The notes under the pieces: model-generated | The model's database searches: none | What the model was told of the DNA's origin: nothing | Seen by the model: only the letters and a program-made list of their open reading frames with translations | Shown: one piece after another, positions 16,782 to 29,086 of the stretch | How the letters are laid out: each line of letters begins with the position of its first letter | Numbering within the stretch: position 1 is the stretch's first letter | Program-made: the position numbers and the translations under genes | Assembly (NCBI GenBank): GCA_963699255.1 | Contig: OY969425.1 | Location: 1,110,001-1,142,000, forward strand | Origin: an uncultured bacterium | Lineage (GTDB): Bacteria > Margulisbacteria > WOR-1 > CAVSGV01 | DNA: 32,000 nucleotides | Reading direction: 5' to 3'

Positions 16782-16866
16782 GGAACCTGCGACTAAACGT
16801 CGCGGTTCCAATTGTTTAGTTGTTATCACTGAATCTTATGGAGCCGAGGCGTTCAGCCTCGGGCTC
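16782..16866 (+). repeat. Bulged-hairpin intergenic repeat, copy 2 (module A, linker, module C)
   Basis: GGAACCTGCGAC-TAAAC-GTCGCGGTTCC (16782-16809), then the linker ...TTAGTTGTTATCACTGAATC..., then GGAGCCGAGGC-GTTCA-GCCTCGGGCTC (16840-16866). It lies between the rpoZ stop and the coaBC start. Confidence 0.8.
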
Positions 16867-16899
16867 TTAACCAAACGCCAAAATGCTGAATTTTAATAG

Positions 16900-19035: not shown

Positions 19036-19192
19036 GGAAATTTGGGATAATGGAATAGAGGAATACGGTTTGGGGATCCAGGAATAAGGGAAGATGGAAA
19101 CCAGACCAATCTGTCACATTAATGCTTTGTGTGTTTTCCTTAATCCCTCTTCCCTGCTTTCCCAAACTGTATCCCTTTATCCCCGATTCCCC
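19036..19192 (+). other. Long imperfect inverted repeat (purine-rich arm / pyrimidine-rich arm), candidate structured RNA or terminator
   Basis: The core helix pairs 19060-19082 with 19153-19175, with 20 of 23 positions pairable including 2 G-U. Further pairing occurs on both sides (for example 19096-19100 with 19135-19139). The arms are GGAA/GGGA-rich and TCCC/TTCC-rich respectively. Confidence 0.5.
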
Positions 19193-19205
19193 ATATACCC
19201 CCCGT

Positions 19206-19629: not shown

Positions 19630-19773
19630 ATGAAAAAGTTCATATTTTTATTTTTGCTTGTGATCTTTGCGTCCGGCTGGTCCCCGATAGATACGATCCC
19701 CGCCCTCAAAAATCTGAAGACGGACATAACAGCACAGCTGAACGAGATCTTCGACAGGGAATATCTCCGTTGA
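19630..19773 (+). other. 47-codon ORF encoding a signal anchor; probable displaced N-terminus of tamB
   Basis: ATG 19630 encodes MKKFIFLFLLVIFASGWSPIDTIPALKNLKTDITAQLNEIFDREYLR and stops at TGA 19771. The tamB frame is open from 19742, so the two frames overlap for about 30 nt. The long tamB ORF on its own lacks any TM or signal segment. Confidence 0.55.
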
Positions 19774-19816
19774 AAGCGTCTCGGGCAGCCTTATAAACCA
19801 AATAGAGCTGAACAAT

Positions 19817-22800
19817 GTGGCCGTTGCAAAAGGTAAAAAACTGTCCGAAGGCTCGATAATAAAGGCGAAAAAAATAGTCATCAGCTACAATCCCTTTAAA
19901 CTGGCCGCCAGCAGAGGGAATATTATCGCCGCCATTTCACAGATCGAGATCATTGAACCGGAGATATTTGTGGAGCGAAGCATCCATGACGAATGGAACA
20001 TGGCCGGCCTTATACCGAAGTCAAAGCCGCTTGAGGAAAAAGAGAAGCCAAAGCCTCTGATGTTCTCGGGAAAAGTGATGATCAAAGGGGGTTACGGCCT
20101 TTACGTGGACCATATGGGCTGGGGCGAAGACCTTAAAGGCAAAGCGTTCACCACAAAAATAAAGGACTTTAACGGAGAGGTTAAGCTCTCAGGAAATAAG
20201 ATCGAACTTTCTGTCACGGCAACTTCGGTAATAGACTCCTCCGTCGCTTTTACGAATACCACGGGTAATTTGAACGTGAAAACAGGCAAATACCGTTTTG
20301 TCGTCATCGCAAAGAACGTTGATCTGGAAAAATGGGGATATTACACATTGAACATCCCTCATTTTAAGCCGATCTCAGGAAGATCCGACATGAAAATGAC
20401 GATGACGAATCCTCCACCCAGAAAAAAAGGGTTGCCTATATTCTTTGACGGGCAGTTCTACATCAAAGACGGCAAGGCAAGGATCTTTGACCGCTCGTTC
20501 AGCGGCATGAACGGGTTCGTAAGCATCCACGATGAGGACGCGAGGTTCAGGAACCTTACCGGATACAGGGACAGGGTCCCTGTTACGGCAAACGGAAGAT
20601 TGTATGATTTCTCCACCGCAAATTACGATCTGACCCTTGATATCCTGAAAACCGGTTCAAGGGAAATATGCCGCGCTTTTCCTGAACTGGCAGGCATCGA
20701 TTTTTCAGGAAAAGCTTCAGCGAATATTCACATAGGCGGAAATTACGGCCATCCGATCTTTAACGGTTATACGATAGCAAACGGGAAACTTTTGGGTCAA
20801 CAGTTAAGCGGCAGGCTCAACTTTTATTCGGAAGGACCCGTTCTTCAGATCAGTTCCGATAACATCTCGGCATATGGAGGGAGATTATACGCGAAAAGCA
20901 TTTTTGATTTCACGCCGACCATACCATTTTTTGATGTCAGCATTTCCGGCGAAAGCTTGGCTCCGGGAAAAGCCCTGCCGATAATCCCCGGACAGAAAGA
21001 AGCGAACCTGCAGGCCAGCATAAAGGGGTCGATGCAAAAGTTCGCGATCAAAAGCGATCTCGCTTTCTCCGGCGGCGGTGCTATATCAGGTTTCGGAACA
21101 GTTGAAGCGGATCATCTTGATCTGCTGCTTTCGTGCACAGACCTGAAGATCTCCTATGATCAGCTCCATGGAAAACTGAACAGCTTCACCGGGAAGCTGT
21201 CCGGCGACCTTCGCGACCCTGAGAAAGACCTGTCACTTGAAGGAGAACTATCCATTGGCGATTCAATGATAGGGGTGCAGCCGATATCGGAAGCAAGCGC
21301 CGCATTTATATATAAAAATAATCAAGTGGATATATCGTCTCTCACGTTATGGTCGGGCAATTCCCGCTTCTCCGTAACAGGGAAAACGGGACTGAACTGC
21401 AAAACCGATCTGATAATTGAAGCGAGCAGCGCGGAAGCCTCCGATCTTAAGATATTGGATGCACTTTTGCCGAAAGAGCTGACGCCTGTTTCAGGAAAGC
21501 TTGATATTTCCCTGTCCGCAAGCGGGGAAATAACGAACATTAAAAAGATCGATCTTTCCACTTTTTCCGTTTCAGGGAGCTGCCATCTAAGAGGCGGCTC
21601 GATCTCCTATGAAAACCTGAAAGAAGCGAAGCTGAACATGAACTGGGAAAATTCCTGCCTCACCTTAAGGGATTCCCGAATAAGAACGAATGCGTCGGAC
21701 ATACTTTTGAACGGTTCAATTGAAGCCGGCGGAAAGATCGACCTGAACATATCGGGAACTCTTGAAATGGCAAACCTGAGGCCGCTGACCATTAAATACG
21801 GCAGGCTCTCCGGATCATCAAGGATCGCTTGCCATCTGGAAGGAAAAACCAGCGATCCCAGCGTTGACATCGATTTTGACAGCGACGATCTAAGGTACAA
21901 TGAAATAATAATCGACAGGGCATCGGGAAGGATCGTATACGACGGCAAGAATATTTTATTCGCGAAACCCCTGACCATAAACCAGGCGGATGACGAATAT
22001 ACGATATCAGGCAGCATCTCGATCGCGAAAAAGCCTGACCTGTCCCTGAGGCTTGATGTATTAAAAGGCGATCTACACACGGCCGTCGATCTAATAGATA
22101 AGGTGAACACCGAGATCGGCACAAAACAATTATTTGGCGTGTCAGAGAAGCGGAATACGATCGTCCTCAATCCAAGCGAGTTCCAGTTCCCGGGAAAAGG
22201 ATCCAAGCTGATATACAATAGCGAGGGGAATAAAACAACCCTTGAAGAGATGAAAATGGCTGAAAGCGAATCATCCACTTTTGGCAAAACAATGAAGGAA
22301 AAGGCCGGCAGGAACGCCAAAGGTAAATTTGCCGGGTTCGTGGAGATCAAGGGCGGCATAGACAATCTTTCGGGCGCGCTGGAGTTTAAGGTTTCCGGCG
22401 GGACATGGGAATCGTACACTTTTGACGAGATCGGCATTAAAACGGGCCTTGAAAACGGGACGTTCGAGGTTTCTTACGCGTATATCAAGAAAGGAGACGG
22501 GATCCTTGCCGCCCGCGGTTCATTTAATCCCCTCTCCTCCGCGTCCCTGGAGATCATAGCGGTCAATATGCCGATAGATTTTCTCTCTCTTTTCATAGGA
22601 AGGGGGAAGTCCTTTGACGGGAAATTCAACATGGCGGCTTTTCTGCACGGGCCCGTTGCATCGCTTGAGGGATACGCAAGTATCGAAGCGCAAAAAGTCA
22701 ACATCGGAGGCGTAAATCTTGACACCATTGTTTCAGACGCCGATTACAGCAACAACACGCTATATTTCAAAAAAATGGAACTTGTGACCGGCGACAAGAA

Positions 22801-24445
22801 AGCCGTCATCAGCGGTCGGCTCCCGCTCGACCAATCGGACATTTCTCTCGGCATAACAATGGAGGGTGAAAGTTTAGGACTTCTTACCCTGGCTTCTTCC
22901 GGCATTTCATGGATCAACGGAACAGGACAGGGTTTCGTGAAAATAACAGGAAGCTTGAGACATCCCAGGTTTAACGGGCACCTCAGTATAAGTGATGCCT
23001 CCGTCAATTTGAAACCTGTTGAATCGAACCTGCAATCAATAAATTCGGAAATAAAAATCAGCAATAACATGATCTCAACCGAAGGGTTTTCGGCAAAGTG
23101 GGTAGGCAAATGGACCCAGAACAACATCAACAAGGTCAAACTCTACGGGAGCCTGGATCTGAACAGCCTATTCTCCAAAGATAAATCCATGTATATTAAT
23201 TTAAGGGCAAATGACGGGGATTTCATTGTTGACCTGCCAAATTTATATAAAGGGGACCTGGAGATCAAGAACTTTTCATTGATCGGGCCGTTGTGGCTTG
23301 GATCGGATAATCCCAAAGCCCCGAAACTTTCAGGAACTTTCAACCTGAGCAACGGAGTAATAATACTTCCAGACATGAGCAAGAAGACAGATCTGCCTCC
23401 CCTGTCTCTCGACCTGACCTTTAACATACTGAAGAATTCCTATGTTTCGGCGGGAGACATAAATAACCTGCTAAGCACGGACCTGAGCAACCTGAACCTG
23501 AACCTTGAGCTGGAGGGACAGAACATCTCCATCACCGGCCTCCTGGATGCGCCAAAGCTACAGGGAAGGACGACTTTCAGTCGCGGCACTGTAAATATCC
23601 TTAACAGGGAGTTTTCCCTTATGTCGGAAGACAGGCAAAAGGAGATCTTCGGCTCCGATCTTGAAAAAGTCAGGCCGAATACGGCGGATTTCCAGGGCGG
23701 AAGTCTCCCGAACCTGACCCTCGCGGCGGAAATAAATGTGAAGTCGACTGAAAAGACAGCCGCGACCGCTCAATCAAAAAATCCCACATACGTCACAACA
23801 AATGTGCTCGTTATATCAAGGATAACGGGGATCCCGTTCTCCAAAGAAAAAGAAGAGGGTCTGAACCTCACATTCTTTTCTTTCATTGAAGACACCTCAA
23901 AGCAACCTTCGGAGTTTACTCCCACCACCTATACCGAGGAAGATATCAAGGTGCTGCTCTTGCCCGACTTCATAAAGAGCTCACTTGGGATCTCCGAAAA
24001 AGGCGTCGGTGAAGTTGACGCCAGCGATGTGCTTGCCGATTATTTGAACAGCAGATTGAATACGTACCTTCTCAGGAACGTTGAACGCAACCTTGCGAAA
24101 AGCCTTGAGCTGGAGAGTTTAACGCTTGAGTATAATTTTGGAAAAGACCTGAAGAACATGATGCCTACAACAAAAACCCCTATTGAGATAGGCCCGCAGG
24201 AAATGCCGGAAACGATGTACGGTATCGGGGCCGTAAAGAGCTTTTTTGGGAGGTTATATCTTGACGTAAACTACTCGCAGGCGGTTGAGGACCAGGCGAT
24301 CATCAATAAGGCTTTCTTGAATTATCAGATCACTTATAAGCTGAATCCGATCCTTTCTGTGGTGTATTACAGGGAGCCTTTCAATTTCATTGAACAAGAG
24401 AGCGATTACTACAAGGTAACGCTAAAAGCCGGTTATCAGCTGTGA
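19817..24445 (+). CDS. tamB: TamB/AsmA-like translocation and assembly module protein (DUF490-type C-terminus)
   Basis: 1542-aa ORF, beta-rich and repetitive, with Gly/Ser/Asn-rich strands such as G-x-L-x-L-x-G. The C-terminus (YQITYKLNPILSVVYYRE...YYKVTLKAGYQL) is typical of TamB. It lies directly upstream of bamA. The annotated GTG start is probably not the real N-terminus. Confidence 0.85.
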   Translation: MAVAKGKKLSEGSIIKAKKIVISYNPFKLAASRGNIIAAISQIEIIEPEIFVERSIHDEWNMAGLIPKSKPLEEKEKPKPLMFSGKVMIKGGYGLYVDHMGWGEDLKGKAFTTKIKDFNGEVKLSGNKIELSVTATSVIDSSVAFTNTTGNLNVKTGKYRFVVIAKNVDLEKWGYYTLNIPHFKPISGRSDMKMTMTNPPPRKKGLPIFFDGQFYIKDGKARIFDRSFSGMNGFVSIHDEDARFRNLTGYRDRVPVTANGRLYDFSTANYDLTLDILKTGSREICRAFPELAGIDFSGKASANIHIGGNYGHPIFNGYTIANGKLLGQQLSGRLNFYSEGPVLQISSDNISAYGGRLYAKSIFDFTPTIPFFDVSISGESLAPGKALPIIPGQKEANLQASIKGSMQKFAIKSDLAFSGGGAISGFGTVEADHLDLLLSCTDLKISYDQLHGKLNSFTGKLSGDLRDPEKDLSLEGELSIGDSMIGVQPISEASAAFIYKNNQVDISSLTLWSGNSRFSVTGKTGLNCKTDLIIEASSAEASDLKILDALLPKELTPVSGKLDISLSASGEITNIKKIDLSTFSVSGSCHLRGGSISYENLKEAKLNMNWENSCLTLRDSRIRTNASDILLNGSIEAGGKIDLNISGTLEMANLRPLTIKYGRLSGSSRIACHLEGKTSDPSVDIDFDSDDLRYNEIIIDRASGRIVYDGKNILFAKPLTINQADDEYTISGSISIAKKPDLSLRLDVLKGDLHTAVDLIDKVNTEIGTKQLFGVSEKRNTIVLNPSEFQFPGKGSKLIYNSEGNKTTLEEMKMAESESSTFGKTMKEKAGRNAKGKFAGFVEIKGGIDNLSGALEFKVSGGTWESYTFDEIGIKTGLENGTFEVSYAYIKKGDGILAARGSFNPLSSASLEIIAVNMPIDFLSLFIGRGKSFDGKFNMAAFLHGPVASLEGYASIEAQKVNIGGVNLDTIVSDADYSNNTLYFKKMELVTGDKKAVISGRLPLDQSDISLGITMEGESLGLLTLASSGISWINGTGQGFVKITGSLRHPRFNGHLSISDASVNLKPVESNLQSINSEIKISNNMISTEGFSAKWVGKWTQNNINKVKLYGSLDLNSLFSKDKSMYINLRANDGDFIVDLPNLYKGDLEIKNFSLIGPLWLGSDNPKAPKLSGTFNLSNGVIILPDMSKKTDLPPLSLDLTFNILKNSYVSAGDINNLLSTDLSNLNLNLELEGQNISITGLLDAPKLQGRTTFSRGTVNILNREFSLMSEDRQKEIFGSDLEKVRPNTADFQGGSLPNLTLAAEINVKSTEKTAATAQSKNPTYVTTNVLVISRITGIPFSKEKEEGLNLTFFSFIEDTSKQPSEFTPTTYTEEDIKVLLLPDFIKSSLGISEKGVGEVDASDVLADYLNSRLNTYLLRNVERNLAKSLELESLTLEYNFGKDLKNMMPTTKTPIEIGPQEMPETMYGIGAVKSFFGRLYLDVNYSQAVEDQAIINKAFLNYQITYKLNPILSVVYYREPFNFIEQESDYYKVTLKAGYQL

Positions 24446-24503
24446 ACAGAAACATCGCTGCATGGTTTATAGCCAGCTTGAGAAATAAGTTGAACTGCAA
24501 GTG

Positions 24504-24509
24504 TATAAT
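24504..24509 (+). promoter_or_regulatory. Candidate -10 box (gTGTATAAT) upstream of the bamA leader
   Basis: A consensus TATAAT sits 12 nt before the heptad palindrome. There is no convincing -35. Confidence 0.3.
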
Positions 24510-24520
24510 AAGTAAACTAT

Positions 24521-24602
24521 ATGAGAGAGATGGGAGATGAGAGACGTGAGATGTGAAAAGACAGATCTCATCTCCCATCTCACATCTCGCATCTCATTTT
24601 TT
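24521..24602 (+). promoter_or_regulatory. Heptad-repeat palindrome plus T6 tract (terminator/attenuator-like) between tamB and bamA
   Basis: Four GAGATGN heptads (24521-24556) are followed by the 7-nt spacer aaagaca, four inverted NCATCTC heptads (24564-24597) and TTTTTT (24597-24602). A perfect 16-bp stem pairs 24527-24542 with 24566-24581. Confidence 0.6.
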
Positions 24603-26396
24603 GAAAGGGGTTCGTCCATTAAAAGATTTGCCGTTATATTAATATTTCTTGCGGCCTTATTGATAGTAAATAATGCCCTGCCCGCATTTGGCGTTATAAT
24701 CGGCTCCCCCGAAGCCCTGCCAAAAGTGGCCCGTCCGCAGCAAAAGATCGAAGTCGGACCTGTCGTTACCGCCATAGAAATAAGAGGGAACAAAACCATA
24801 GCGGAAAGCACGATCATGGATGCCGTTTTCAGCCGCATAGGAGATATCCTTATAGAGGAAAAAGTATCAAGTGATGTCAAAGCGATATATGCAATGGGTT
24901 ATTTTCAGGATGTTTTTGCTTCATTTGAGTCCTATGCCAAAGGAACAAGGATAATATTCAATACGATAGAAAATCCCGTTCTAAATGTGATATCCACTGA
25001 AGGTAATTCCGTATATACATCCGATAAGCTTGTATCTCTCATGAAAACCAGGGTCGGAGATATCCTGAACTTTAAGACCCTTCAAGAGGACATCCAGACG
25101 ATCAACGACTTCTATCACAAGAACGGCTACACTATCGCCAGGGTCGCCGATGTGTCCACTGACCCGAAAACCAGCACGCTTAAGATAAAGATCATTGAAG
25201 GGATAATTGAATCCATAGCACTTGACGGAAACCTTTCAACACGGGATGACGTTATTTTGAGGGAAATAGACACGAAGCCGGGCGATATTTTGAATGAAAA
25301 ATCGCTTTCAAAGGACCTGAGAAGGGTCTTTAACCTGGGCTTCTTCACCGAGCTTACCCCGAATTTTGAGCCGGGAAGTTCCCCGGAAAAAATAGTCCTT
25401 GTCCTCAAAATAAAGGAAGCAAAAACGAACACGCTCAACTTCGGCGGAGGATACGGAGAACAGGAAGGATGGTTCGGCTTCGTTGACACGAGCATGAATA
25501 ATCTGTTCGGTACGGGACATGGAACGATGGTCAAGGCGCAGTGGGGCTCCACTCTGACAACATATCAGTTCAAGTATTACTATCCATGGTTCATGACGGA
25601 CTATTTGGGGTCGAGGACATCCATGACTTACAGAGTATGGAACACGTCCGGCGCCGACATTTACGGCAATGAAGTTGAAGACGCCTTGAGAATAGGATGG
25701 GATATCGCGCTTACGAGGCCGTTCGCCGAATATTTCTCACATTCACTGACGTTCGGAAGCGAGACCGCGATACCTAACGAAGATTCCACTGTCACAAATG
25801 CCGTCACTTTTGAGCAATACTCGTCGGATTTCATCGGGTATTCTATCTCTTACGACACGAGGGACTTCTGGATGAACCCCACGGAAGGAATGTTCCATAC
25901 CATCTCCATCAGAAAAGGCTGGAAAGACACGGATAATGTGATAACCAATTATACGAAACTCGGTCTTGATATGAATGAATTCGTGAAACTCGGGATAAAC
26001 CAGGTTTTGGCTCTTCATGCCTCTACAGGGGTCGGATACGGCGATGTGCCTATCGGCGAACTTTACTGGTGCGGCGGCGCGAACACCGTAAGGGGTTATG
26101 CCCCGTCCGAAGCGGTGCTTGGCGCCAGAAAGCTCATATTCAATATCGAGTACAGGTATACTTTCAACGAGACGTTCCAGGGGGTTGCTTTTTATGACTT
26201 CGGCGACGCCTGGGGTGATGTCGTTAACGGCGAAGTCGACGGCGGCGCCCCTGATTTTTCCCAATTCATGAGCGGAAAAGGACTTGGCCTAAGGTTGAAC
26301 ACTCCAATGGGTCCCATAAGGCTTGACTACGGGATCGGCGATTCAAGGTCGTTCGGCGAAGGCATAGTGCATTTTTCAATTGGACAAGCTTTCTAA
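24537..26396 (+). CDS. bamA: Outer membrane protein assembly factor BamA (Omp85 family)
   Basis: It has POTRA-type repeats (VTAIEIRGNKTIAESTIMDAV..., ISTEGNSVYTSDKL..., IIEGIIESIALDGNLSTRDDVILREI) and a C-terminal 16-strand barrel with VRGY and a terminal HFSIGQAF. The track start at ATG 24537 lies inside the palindrome. The real start is probably ATT 24618 (see findings). Confidence 0.9.
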   Translation: MRDVRCEKTDLISHLTSRISFFERGSSIKRFAVILIFLAALLIVNNALPAFGVIIGSPEALPKVARPQQKIEVGPVVTAIEIRGNKTIAESTIMDAVFSRIGDILIEEKVSSDVKAIYAMGYFQDVFASFESYAKGTRIIFNTIENPVLNVISTEGNSVYTSDKLVSLMKTRVGDILNFKTLQEDIQTINDFYHKNGYTIARVADVSTDPKTSTLKIKIIEGIIESIALDGNLSTRDDVILREIDTKPGDILNEKSLSKDLRRVFNLGFFTELTPNFEPGSSPEKIVLVLKIKEAKTNTLNFGGGYGEQEGWFGFVDTSMNNLFGTGHGTMVKAQWGSTLTTYQFKYYYPWFMTDYLGSRTSMTYRVWNTSGADIYGNEVEDALRIGWDIALTRPFAEYFSHSLTFGSETAIPNEDSTVTNAVTFEQYSSDFIGYSISYDTRDFWMNPTEGMFHTISIRKGWKDTDNVITNYTKLGLDMNEFVKLGINQVLALHASTGVGYGDVPIGELYWCGGANTVRGYAPSEAVLGARKLIFNIEYRYTFNETFQGVAFYDFGDAWGDVVNGEVDGGAPDFSQFMSGKGLGLRLNTPMGPIRLDYGIGDSRSFGEGIVHFSIGQAF

Positions 26397-26409
26397 ACCT
26401 TTCCCCCTA

Positions 26410-26434
26410 CCCCTCTCCTTAATAAGGAGAGGGG
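26410..26434 (+). terminator. Perfect 11-bp stem-loop after bamA
   Basis: CCCCTCTCCTT-AAT-AAGGAGAGGGG begins 14 nt after the bamA stop. No U-tract follows, so it is not a canonical intrinsic terminator. Confidence 0.4.
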
Positions 26435-26459
26435 AGCATAGTAAAGGCTAAAGTAGATT

Positions 26460-27133: not shown

Positions 27134-27240
27134 GGAACCTGCGACCTGCCTCGCGGCAAGGCGGGCTAAACGTCGCGGTTCCTGTTATATTAGTTGTTAT
27201 TACTGAATCATTTGGAGCCGAGGCGTTTAGCCTCAGGCTC
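27134..27240 (+). repeat. Bulged-hairpin intergenic repeat, copy 3 (module A with a 26-nt loop insert, linker, module C)
   Basis: GGAACCTGCGAC (27134-27145) pairs with GTCGCGGTTCC (27172-27182). Then come TTAGTTGTTATTACTGAATC and GGAGCCGAGGC-GTTTA-GCCTCAGGCTC (27214-27240). Confidence 0.8.
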
Positions 27241-27254
27241 TTTTTCTAAAAATA

Positions 27255-27263
27255 TGATATAAT
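27255..27263 (+). promoter_or_regulatory. Extended -10 promoter TGATATAAT, 8 nt upstream of the parA ATG (leaderless candidate)
   Basis: The sequence reads aTGaTATAAT-atactgaa-ATG(27272), with no SD. The 10-mer ATGATATAAT and the N8 spacing are identical to 5611-5631. Confidence 0.45.
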
Positions 27264-27271
27264 ATACTGAA

Positions 27272-28036
27272 ATGTCCACTATTTTCGCCACCGTTAACCA
27301 GAAAGGCGGGGTTGGAAAAACCACTACTTCCGTCAATTTGGCGTCATATCTTGCCACCTTCGGCAAAAAAATACTTCTTATTGATTGCGATCCCCAGGGG
27401 AATGCATCATCAGGCCTGGGCATTGACAGGAATGAGGTCACAACATGCATGTACGACGTGATAATCAACGGCGCTGAACTCTCTAGCATCATTAAACCTA
27501 CGGTAATTTCCGGTCTAGATATCGCCCCCGCGACCCCTCGTCTCGCCGGCGCGGAAGTAGAACTCACCGAAATGGACCTTAGGGAATCGATATTAAAGAA
27601 CGCCTTAATGCCGGCCAGGGCGAAATATGATTATCTTATTATTGATTGCCCTCCTTCACTCTCGCTTTTAACCGTTAATGCGCTTACGGCATCCGACCAG
27701 GTGATAATACCGATCCAATGCGAGTACTACGCGCTGGAGGGCTTGAGCCAGCTTGTAAAAACGATAGAGCTGATAAAGAAAAGCTTGAATCCTGACTTGC
27801 GCATATGCGGGATTTTGCTTACAATGTACGACTCAAGGACGCTTTTATCAGAGCAAGTGGTGGAGGAAACAAGGCGGCATTTCGGCGGAAGGGTGTTTAA
27901 GACCATAATCCCAAGGAACGTGAGGCTGGCGGAATCTCCTTCTTTTGGGCAGCCGATAGTGTTCTATGATCCTTCTTCGAGCGGCGCAGTGGCGTATGAA
28001 AACCTGTCCAGGGAAATACTGGACGGGCACATTTAA
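27272..28036 (+). CDS. parA: Chromosome partitioning ATPase ParA/Soj
   Basis: 254-aa ORF with a deviant Walker A (NQKGGVGKTTTSVNLA), IIDCPPSL, and the motif IPRNVRLAESPSFGQPIVFYD. Confidence 0.95.
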   Translation: MSTIFATVNQKGGVGKTTTSVNLASYLATFGKKILLIDCDPQGNASSGLGIDRNEVTTCMYDVIINGAELSSIIKPTVISGLDIAPATPRLAGAEVELTEMDLRESILKNALMPARAKYDYLIIDCPPSLSLLTVNALTASDQVIIPIQCEYYALEGLSQLVKTIELIKKSLNPDLRICGILLTMYDSRTLLSEQVVEETRRHFGGRVFKTIIPRNVRLAESPSFGQPIVFYDPSSSGAVAYENLSREILDGHI

Positions 28037-29021: not shown

Positions 29022-29086
29022 GGAACCTGCGACTGAAAGTCGCGGTTCCAATCAAAGCGGAACCGAGAGTTTTACTCTCAGGTTCC
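29022..29086 (+). repeat. Bulged-hairpin intergenic repeat, copy 4 (compact module A plus module B, 65 nt)
   Basis: GGAACCTGCGAC-TGAAA-GTCGCGGTTCC (29022-29049), then aatcaaagc, then GGAACCGAGAGT-TTT-ACTCTCAGGTTCC (29059-29086). The 3' arm overlaps the ATPase stop codon. Confidence 0.8.

Follow-up and report, generated by a model that had tools for sequence, protein, structure and literature searches.

INTRODUCTION

Several kinds of 7-bp repeats are known from the spaces between bacterial genes. STRR hairpins lie between hupS and hupL in filamentous cyanobacteria, where they have been proposed to stabilize transcripts (PMC2670836); Xanthomonas genomes each carry 70 to 75 convergent pairs of the heptamer GGGAATC, near stop codons (Rehm et al. 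2015, PMC4692102); and direct repeats of the heptamer TAACTGA, found in Beggiatoaceae, Cyanobacteria, and Bacteroidetes, have been suggested to be involved in translation or RNA binding (PMC4679880). A locus in the genome of an uncultured bacterium offers a well-defined entry point to the question of what heptamer repeats do: a hairpin, some 75 nt long and made of 7-nt simple-sequence repeats with the unit GAGATGN, in the spacer between a TamB-like gene and a BamA-like gene of the Omp85 family. The stretch analyzed (the window) comprises 32,000 nt of contig OY969425.1 (GCA_963699255.1), forward strand, positions 1,110,001 to 1,142,000, and all coordinates below are window positions.

The hairpin is of a known kind, the 7-bp-repeat hairpins between genes (PMC2670836, PMC4692102). 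The first-pass annotation of this DNA, made from the letters alone, knew of no described bamA leader of this form, which holds for the leader, but the kind of element itself had been described. We found no GAGATGN-type heptad strings in a bacterial context in the literature searched; as far as that literature shows, there is no earlier description of GAGATGN as a unit, of its occurrence across 11 phylum-level groups, of evidence that it is constrained, or of its placement in a bamA-like leader. We favor, with about even confidence, a reading of the element as an intercistronic RNA stem-loop that is read through and that would serve as a leaky terminator or a barrier to decay.

The closest parallels are the STRR elements and the Xanthomonas pairs. 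The STRR elements likewise consist of tandem 7-nt units, form intergenic hairpins in operon or promoter-proximal spacers, and have a proposed role in transcript stability or coupling (PMC2670836). The host phylum of the hairpin is the sister group of the Cyanobacteria. The two differ in their units (GAGATGN here; CCCCAGT, TTGGTCA, and CAACAGT among the STRR elements), in copy number (STRR elements are highly multicopy within a genome, whereas the 32-kb window holds one hairpin), and in the occurrence of GAGATGN in 11 phylum-level groups. With the Xanthomonas GGGAATC and Nostoc GGGGA(T/C)T repeats, the hairpin shares intergenic heptamer arrays, often in facing pairs with the G-rich array first and near stop codons, whose length varies between related species while the array type is kept; like these and the STRR elements, it has at least three tandem units in inverted, G-rich-first arrays, is intergenic, and varies in unit number. 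Those G-tract units, however, have been studied as quadruplex formers, whereas GAGATGN cannot form G-quadruplexes, and no evidence of constraint was reported for them, whereas the window hairpin is far more conserved than synonymous sites. The TAACTGA repeats resemble it in that one heptamer forms tandem intergenic arrays in distant phyla, often just upstream of start codons, but they are direct repeats (with one inverted set in 170) and form no hairpins.

Other intercistronic stem-loops offer a parallel in mode of action. REP/BIME elements and intercistronic stem-loops such as that of malE-malF in Escherichia coli are read through, block 3'-to-5' decay, and lower downstream expression; as intergenic palindromes inside an operon, they are most likely similar to the heptad hairpin in how they work. 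REP elements differ in having no tandem short units and in forming species-specific families of hundreds of copies that are tied to RAYT transposases.

RESULTS

Anatomy and fold of the heptad hairpin

The hairpin and the T run that follows it consist of four parts.

24521-24556, plus strand: 5' arm, with foot ATGAGA, then GAGATGG, GAGATGA, GAGACGT, GAGATGT, then GA
24557-24565, plus strand: central unpaired or weakly paired segment in the RNA fold, loop region AAAGACAGA
24566-24596, plus strand: 3' arm, with TCTCATC, TCCCATC, TCACATC, TCGCATC, then TCA; read as NCATCTC, four units
24597-24602, plus strand: T6 run, directly after the 3' arm

Four GAGATGN units (24527-24556) thus stand opposite four NCATCTC units (24566-24595), and since G exceeds C in the 5' arm, the G-rich array is the 5' one. 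Tandem Repeats Finder counts 4.3 copies of a period-7 unit at 24527-24556 and 4.0 at 24569-24596, and lag-7 autocorrelation is 0.70 to 0.72. An inverted-repeat search recovers 30-nt arms (24527-24556 and 24566-24595) of 83% complementarity. The string GAGATGNGAGATG, allowing up to two mismatches, has eight matches in the window, all within 24527-24595, against about 2.7 expected by chance and with eight reached in none of 100 shuffles.

The letters on which the first-pass annotation was based (24521-24602, including the T6 run, and a TATAAT at 24504-24509) are identical on re-reading, and direct counting bears out the pairings it proposed: a perfect 16-bp stem (24527-24542 with 24566-24581; 16/16 Watson-Crick pairs, also returned by the inverted-repeat search), a second stem of 24546-24556 with 24580-24590 (10 Watson-Crick pairs and 1 G-U pair), and a nested register of about 30 bp with roughly one mismatch per heptad (25 Watson-Crick pairs and 5 mismatches). 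It had further named register switching as one of three possible readings, which folding does not bear out. The minimum-energy structure is a single nested hairpin of about 30 bp, in which 24521-24526 pairs with 24592-24597 and a 3-nt bulge occupies 24589-24591; it lies one heptad off the register that had been called fully nested. No competing register appears among the 29 suboptimal structures within 3 kcal/mol, all of which are minor variants of one hairpin (nested folds only). Plus-strand RNA of 24519-24604 has a predicted energy of -37.5 kcal/mol, whereas shuffled versions average -22.3 (z of -4.8) and none of 200 does as well; the minus strand gives a similar value (-39.7 kcal/mol; z of -5.8).

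Restriction to one lineage and constraint within it

We compared 12 close loci with protein identities of 79 to 90%: the window, L001 to L004, L100 to L103, and L117 to L119. Protein homologues, the best of them 90% identical, put the organism among Candidatus Margulisbacteria-like lineages, and L001 is the closest known relative. The leader in which the hairpin lies contains the following short features.

24490-24495, plus strand: TTGAAC, -35-like box; GTTGAA(C/G)TG is invariant in nine aligned relatives
24504-24509, plus strand: TATAAT box of the first-pass annotation, within the variable spacer between two invariant boxes
24513-24518, plus strand: TAAACT, -10-like box, in the invariant AAGTAAACTAT (alignment A1)
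24604-24610, plus strand: Shine-Dalgarno sequence AAAGGGG; GGAGG in relatives

Only the window and L001 have the hairpin, and the other 10 of the 12 orthologous spacers lack it. It forms a block bounded by the invariant AAGTAAACTAT on one side and the Shine-Dalgarno sequence plus an ATT codon on the other; the leader measures 97 nt in the window and 90 nt in L001, and relatives have 25 to 41 unconserved nucleotides before the Shine-Dalgarno sequence (alignment A1). The proposal of a conserved bamA leader or attenuator does not survive this alignment, nor does Rfam lend it a match: at the site, only microRNA-precursor hairpins appear, below threshold (31 bits, where gathering takes 69), nowhere in the window is a gathering score attained, and a known RNA family was rejected. 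The hairpin is no new regulatory leader for outer-membrane biogenesis, and the tamB-bamA spacer of this lineage is no general model for bamA regulation.

Where it is present, the hairpin is under sequence constraint, as judged from its divergence: 71 of 75 positions (95%; P ~1e-8) are identical between the window and L001, apart from a one-unit indel, where fourfold degenerate sites are 67 to 68% identical (0.68 for the Omp85 gene, n = 238; 0.67 for the TamB gene, n = 146). Identity is unbroken over 42 consecutive nucleotides (24523-24564), which take in the 5' heptads and the loop, and 8 of the 9 loop positions are the same, with T>C at 24565. The remaining changes in L001 affect the foot (T>A at 24522; AT>TC at 24596-24597), together with a 7-nt deletion, and leave a full hairpin with a cleaner stem (-38.0 kcal/mol; z of -6.6). 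In pairs more closely related than these two, hairpin-free leaders drift at the synonymous rate (28 of 41 leader positions identical between L117 and L118, at a fourfold identity of 0.76). A recent recombination tract was considered as the source of the conservation and rejected: fourfold identity in the 50 codons on either side of the spacer is 0.71 and 0.62, not raised as far as the data reach.

For the origin of the hairpin, our favored course of events is a single entry into the spacer before the window organism and L001 diverged, after which heptad units would have been gained and lost by replication slippage. Derivation in place from the ancestral leader finds no sign in local alignments of the hairpin, on both strands, to the 10 empty leaders: similarity is not meaningful, the best alignment being an 11-nt match (P ~0.04) among 20 tests. 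Comparing filled with empty sites by eye, we saw no target-site duplication. A phage or mobile origin finds no support in 2.9 million viral contigs, where the palindrome pattern has no match (a zero that makes these contigs useless as a control for shuffled units). Heptad copies number one in the window and one in the 13.7 kb of L001, and GAGATGN occurs at other loci in related genomes (L071, L081).

The hairpin could also be a functionless by-product, neutral or selfish, that the spacer tolerates: a simple-sequence repeat enlarged through slippage and fold-back copying, or else a mobile palindrome of small size. Heptamers are the most over-represented long intergenic simple-sequence repeats of bacteria, an excess attributed to polymerase slippage (cited in PMC4692102, PMC4679880); the one-unit indel against L001, the many other lineage-specific hairpin insertions in the window genome, and the GAGATGN copies at other loci of relatives would all fit such an origin. 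We nevertheless consider it unlikely that the repeat lacks a function, since its identity of 71/75 contrasts with 0.675 at neutral sites, the neighboring codons show nothing of a recombination tract, and orthologous members of the wider class (below) are also more conserved than their flanks. The single copy in 32 kb and the lack of any terminal target duplication visible by eye likewise speak against this reading.

The hairpin is noncoding, and the BamA-like gene probably starts at ATT

In the window, an open reading frame (ORF) runs from an ATG at 24537 through the hairpin into the Omp85 gene, so that the region could be read as coding for an N-terminal extension (MRDVRCEKTDLISHLTSR...) of the Omp85 protein, the alternative that the first-pass annotation had named as its refutation. 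This can be set aside as practically untenable. L001 lacks one 7-nt unit of the 3' arm, which puts the ATG matching that at 24537 out of frame and ends its ORF after 32 codons; the hairpin is noncoding, because a one-heptad deletion breaks the frame. In addition, Omp85 homologues give no alignment over the first 27 residues of the long ORF, the RNA fold has its ATG inside the hairpin stem, and a standard signal peptide begins further downstream, at ATT.

That ATT is probably the start codon. A GGAGG-like Shine-Dalgarno sequence precedes an ATT (ATC in L100 and L119) by 7 to 9 nt in all 12 close loci, whatever the upstream frame, and because this combination is the only one the 12 share, we infer a noncanonical start there. 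The product would open with (M/I)KRFAVILIFLAALLIVNNALPAFG, a standard signal peptide of the pattern (I)KRF...AFA whose N-terminal IKR is conserved in relatives. A conserved ATG within AAACTATG is in frame at some loci, out of frame in L102, L103, and L118, and absent in L001. In the three out-of-frame loci, the short ORF from this ATG terminates at a TAA that overlaps the ATT (AT-TAA), an arrangement that suggests termination-reinitiation coupling.

Gene callers had chosen assorted upstream ATGs or truncated downstream starts for the BamA-like gene. An 88%-identical Omp85 protein (P0002) has a called N-terminus, METRDWRSEIRK, that resembles translated GAGAYNN heptads right before the ATT codon, in a spacer of only about 80 nt, and may reflect a shortened or collapsed hairpin in a third lineage.

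Predicted transcription through the hairpin

Upstream of the hairpin, the TTGAAC and TAAACT boxes are spaced by 17 nt and fit 8 of 12 consensus positions; a sigma-70 scan called no plus-strand promoter near the hairpin, this pair included. From their conservation and spacing, we infer that they form the promoter, in which case the transcript would begin at about 24524-24527, at the foot of the hairpin. The first-pass annotation had pointed to the TATAAT at 24504-24509 instead, whose role as a -10 box is not supported: relatives have TATAAA, TTATAA, TTTAAT, TTTAGT, or TAATAA at this place, and in the window no -35 partner lies 16 to 18 nt away. A different promoter may consist of a TAGAAA-like box and TATAAW separated by 18 nt, with transcripts that would start near the conserved ATG.

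Between the T run and the start codon there are about 15 nt, occupied by the Shine-Dalgarno sequence. Since this leaves no room for a promoter, transcripts of the bamA-like gene would have to read through the hairpin, and on this layout every such transcript must contain it. The RNA would carry the hairpin as roughly the first 75 nt of the bamA-like message and also in the tail of any tamB read-through transcript, and would form one long imperfect stem-loop followed by U6, acting in cis while transcription continues past it. Working as a leaky terminator or as a block to exonucleases, the stem-loop would determine how much tamB-like message there is relative to bamA-like message and would shield RNA ends. 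We favor the stem-loop because its long stem and U6 come after the stop codon of one gene and before the ribosome-binding site of the next, and because the members of the wider class are placed likewise.

The arrangement of hairpin and T run is real, as the first-pass annotation had it, and resembles an intrinsic terminator: past a stop codon, a stem-loop leads directly into a U run. An efficient intrinsic terminator would end the tamB-like transcript here and leave bamA to be transcribed independently. This we judge very unlikely, although a stable hairpin with T6 stands 76 nt after the tamB-like stop codon and L071 has a similar hairpin between a stop codon and a TATAAT-like box. The bamA-like gene's only promoter-like boxes, which are conserved, lie upstream of the hairpin, with no space for another beyond it, so that a tamB terminator alone is at odds with transcripts that must traverse it. 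A terminator scan did not call the hairpin. Its stem of about 30 bp of GAGAUG/CAUCUC, with bulges and at least five internal mismatches, is A/G/U-rich, in contrast to the short GC-rich stem of a terminator (about 5 to 14 bp with a loop of 3 to 8 nt). A canonical terminator-like hairpin that the window does contain, at 27214-27245, has a far shorter stem of higher GC content. Class members, moreover, usually have no U run. The T run itself is partly ancestral, because in hairpin-free relatives, too, a T-rich patch stands before the Shine-Dalgarno sequence, though a shorter one (TTT or TTTT); L001 has T5.

Alternatively, the hairpin might be a 5'-terminal stabilizer or processing site only, which guards the bamA-like mRNA against 5'-end-dependent RNases or serves RNase III as a cleavage site, and so would fix the lifetime of the message, with no meaningful termination. 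If TAAACT is the -10 box, transcription starts at the foot of the stem, as this explanation would have it; the Shine-Dalgarno sequence stays unpaired in the RNA fold; an imperfect stem of 30 bp has the size of an RNase III substrate; and the gene that follows is probably needed, a point against real termination. Most class members, however, lie after stop codons or between cistrons and not at transcript starts, and U6 right after the stem is the classic arrangement of a terminator, so that we regard a purely 5'-terminal role as improbable.

A widespread class of heptad palindromes

We scanned one genome per species for an exact pattern of two GAGATGN units opposite two NCATCTC units; the reversed-polarity form of the pattern is CATCTCNCATCTC, N14-44, GAGATGNGAGATG. 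GAGATGN palindromes occur in 95 stretches from 60 assemblies and 11 phylum-level groups (Gemmatimonadota, 42 stretches; Acidobacteriota, 17; Bacteroidota, 16; Chloroflexota, 9; and others), where an estimated 0.01 would be expected by chance, and two Margulisbacteria-like genomes have them at other loci. The surrounding DNA holds 199 arrays of period 7, compared to 9 to 21 for periods 5, 6, 8, and 9. Palindromes of different heptads (GATTTCG, GGCAGAA, AATGCAA, TTGATAA, GGGGATY) are common nearby, and GAGATGN is therefore one unit among many. In all 33 palindromes that the search pattern had not selected, the G-rich arm is 5'. The breadth of this set and its strict rule of polarity provide a handle on heptamer function.

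Across the contigs L005 to L099, from Gemmatimonadota, Acidobacteriota, Bacteroidota, Chloroflexota, and others, the heptad palindromes are built of many different units. Their central parts can make up a separate GC-rich hairpin family within a single genome, such as ..GCCTCGGGAAGC..CCCGAGGC.. in DATFPD01.

Gene contexts were counted from crude longest-ORF calls and only for elements with both neighbors less than 200 nt away; 26 of the 95 elements fall "inside" ORFs in these calls because the repeats have no stop codons. The spacers so defined are convergent in 13 cases, co-directional in 15, and divergent in 2. Pfam-confirmed co-directional cases lie within operons, the hairpins filling the rpoA-rplQ spacer of a metagenome-assembled genome labeled Chitinophaga pinensis (L073, 5555-5602; 18 and 23 nt to spare) and the sufC-sufD spacer of a Cytophagaceae metagenome-assembled genome (L075, 6004-6049), with 7 to 23 nt spare on each side over the two cases. 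Because these intra-operon spacers are so tight, the hairpins in them must be read through. Members inside rpoA-rplQ and sufC-sufD, in groups with culturable representatives such as Chitinophaga, make function testable. Orthologous class members also exceed their flanks in conservation: 92/96 versus 0.88 for L074/L084 and 98/98 versus 0.94 for L018/L058. In the Gemmatimonadaceae pair L015/L033, the heptad arms are identical and the center has wholly diverged.

Weighing a read-through stem-loop against a regulated switch

Several observations weigh against the stem-loop that we favor. If termination were not weak, a strong hairpin with U6 would sit awkwardly before a gene that is probably essential. 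The promoter boxes are weak consensus matches that the scan left uncalled. A T run after the 3' arm is no feature of the class, being seen by eye in about 7 of 25 low-GC examples and in no high-GC example, and was rejected as a class-wide terminator signature (an automated count of T tails was unreliable, as the minimum-energy fold pairs the flanks). The L081 copy, in a Margulisbacteria-like genome, lies between apparently divergent genes, and the window has only its one copy. Finally, the loop and the mismatched seventh positions are conserved too, beyond what stem stability would require, which hints at sequence-specific recognition.

Because conservation covers the loop and those seventh positions, a sequence-specific reading stays alive. 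HutP uses UAG triplets at 7-nt spacing, and TRAP binds (G/U)AG arrays of similar spacing; the heptad hairpin resembles their targets in having GAG triplets with a 4-nt spacer, and hence a 7-nt period, in the 5' half of a terminator-like leader hairpin. Among cold-shock proteins, one CspB is bound per heptamer (cited in PMC4679880). By analogy, a ring-shaped or cold-shock-type RNA-binding protein on the arm of four GAG-NNNN units could block the terminator hairpin and so control read-through or, in a DNA version, a repressor could occupy an operator of eight heptads. Conservation of the whole 5' arm, with 42 identical nucleotides at a fourfold identity of 0.68, the L015/L033 arms kept around a diverged center, the position of hairpin and U6 directly between promoter-like boxes and Shine-Dalgarno sequence, and the recurrence of GAGATGN across phylum-level groups would fit such a switch.

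We nonetheless think a regulated switch quite unlikely. We identified no candidate binding protein, HutP- or TRAP-like or otherwise, and saw neither ligand logic nor an alternative fold; nested folding yields no antiterminator within 3 kcal/mol. The lack of a hairpin in 10 of 12 close loci speaks against a conserved circuit of outer-membrane biogenesis, class members use many unrelated heptads and sit in housekeeping operons (rpoA-rplQ, sufC-sufD), and at a 7-bp period each site is rotated by 240 degrees against the one before, an unusual geometry for operators in double-stranded DNA. Its boldest extension, for which our expectation is similarly low, would make GAGATGN-type hairpins a functional, selected class of RNA or DNA in at least 11 phylum-level groups, of fixed polarity and recognized by a conserved factor; the bamA-like copy would then be a protein-controlled attenuator in which binding to (GAG-NNNN)x4 sets read-through and the gain or loss of heptads acts as an evolvable tuning knob. 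Should these hairpins tune relative expression within operons, they would constitute an overlooked layer of gene control, and if they do not, the hairpin is still a clean example of selection on a simple-sequence repeat.

Neighboring genes and other repeats in the window

The genes on either side, between which the hairpin was correctly placed by the first-pass annotation, and a second insertion in their spacer are as follows.

19630-24445, plus strand: TamB-like gene (Pfam TamB), aligned with the intact 1604-aa gene of L001
24618-26396, plus strand: BamA-like Omp85 gene (Pfam POTRA and Omp85; NCBIfam BamA as top match), with the probable ATT start
24442-24478, plus strand: small hairpin insertion of 37 nt (alignment A1), outside the heptad hairpin but also in the tamB-bamA spacer

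The top curated family for the Omp85 protein is BamA TIGR03303, at 263.9 bits, below the cutoff of 297, and gidB, parA, and parB follow the gene. The TamB-like gene is split in the window by one extra base relative to L001 near 19762-19763, which is either a real frameshift or an assembly error; its frame meets a stop at 19771-19773, and the long ORF picks up again at a GTG at 19817.

The 37-nt insertion, a second and independent indel polymorphism of the spacer, is bordered by a duplication of CAGCT (24437-24441 and 24474-24478) and provides the tamB-like stop codon (TGA, 24443-24445). Both the window and L102 have it, L105 has a similar-looking sequence, and L003 has a different insert at the same site; it is absent from L001, L002, L004, L100, L101, and L103, although L102 and L103 are otherwise near-identical.

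A dispersed two-hairpin repeat lies at 16782-16870, 27136-27245, and 29022-29086 (two to three copies in 32 kb, all intergenic, with none expected). It reads GGAACCTGCGAC..GTCGCGGTTCC and, about 30 nt on, GGAGCCGAGGCGTT(C/T)AGCCTC(G/A)GGCTC plus a T run, and the matching spacers of L001 have no copy. At 19036-19195, upstream of a conserved promoter (TTGAAT, 17 nt, TATAAT), an imperfect hairpin of about 130 nt (z of -4.1), absent in L001, has a purine-rich 5' half and a pyrimidine-rich 3' half, a polarity like that of the heptad palindromes, and a periodicity of 7 to 8 nt (units such as AGGAATA). The Omp85-gidB spacer contains a perfect 11-bp hairpin at 26404-26436 (CCCCTCTCCTT-AAT-AAGGAGAGGGG) whose C-rich arm is 5', opposite to the heptad hairpins; no such spacer exists in L001, where the Omp85 gene and gidB overlap. 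Finally, the stretch TATGATATAAT before parA (27245-27275), conserved in L001, has 9 nt between a -10-like box and the ATG and no Shine-Dalgarno sequence, and the parA mRNA may be leaderless or nearly so.

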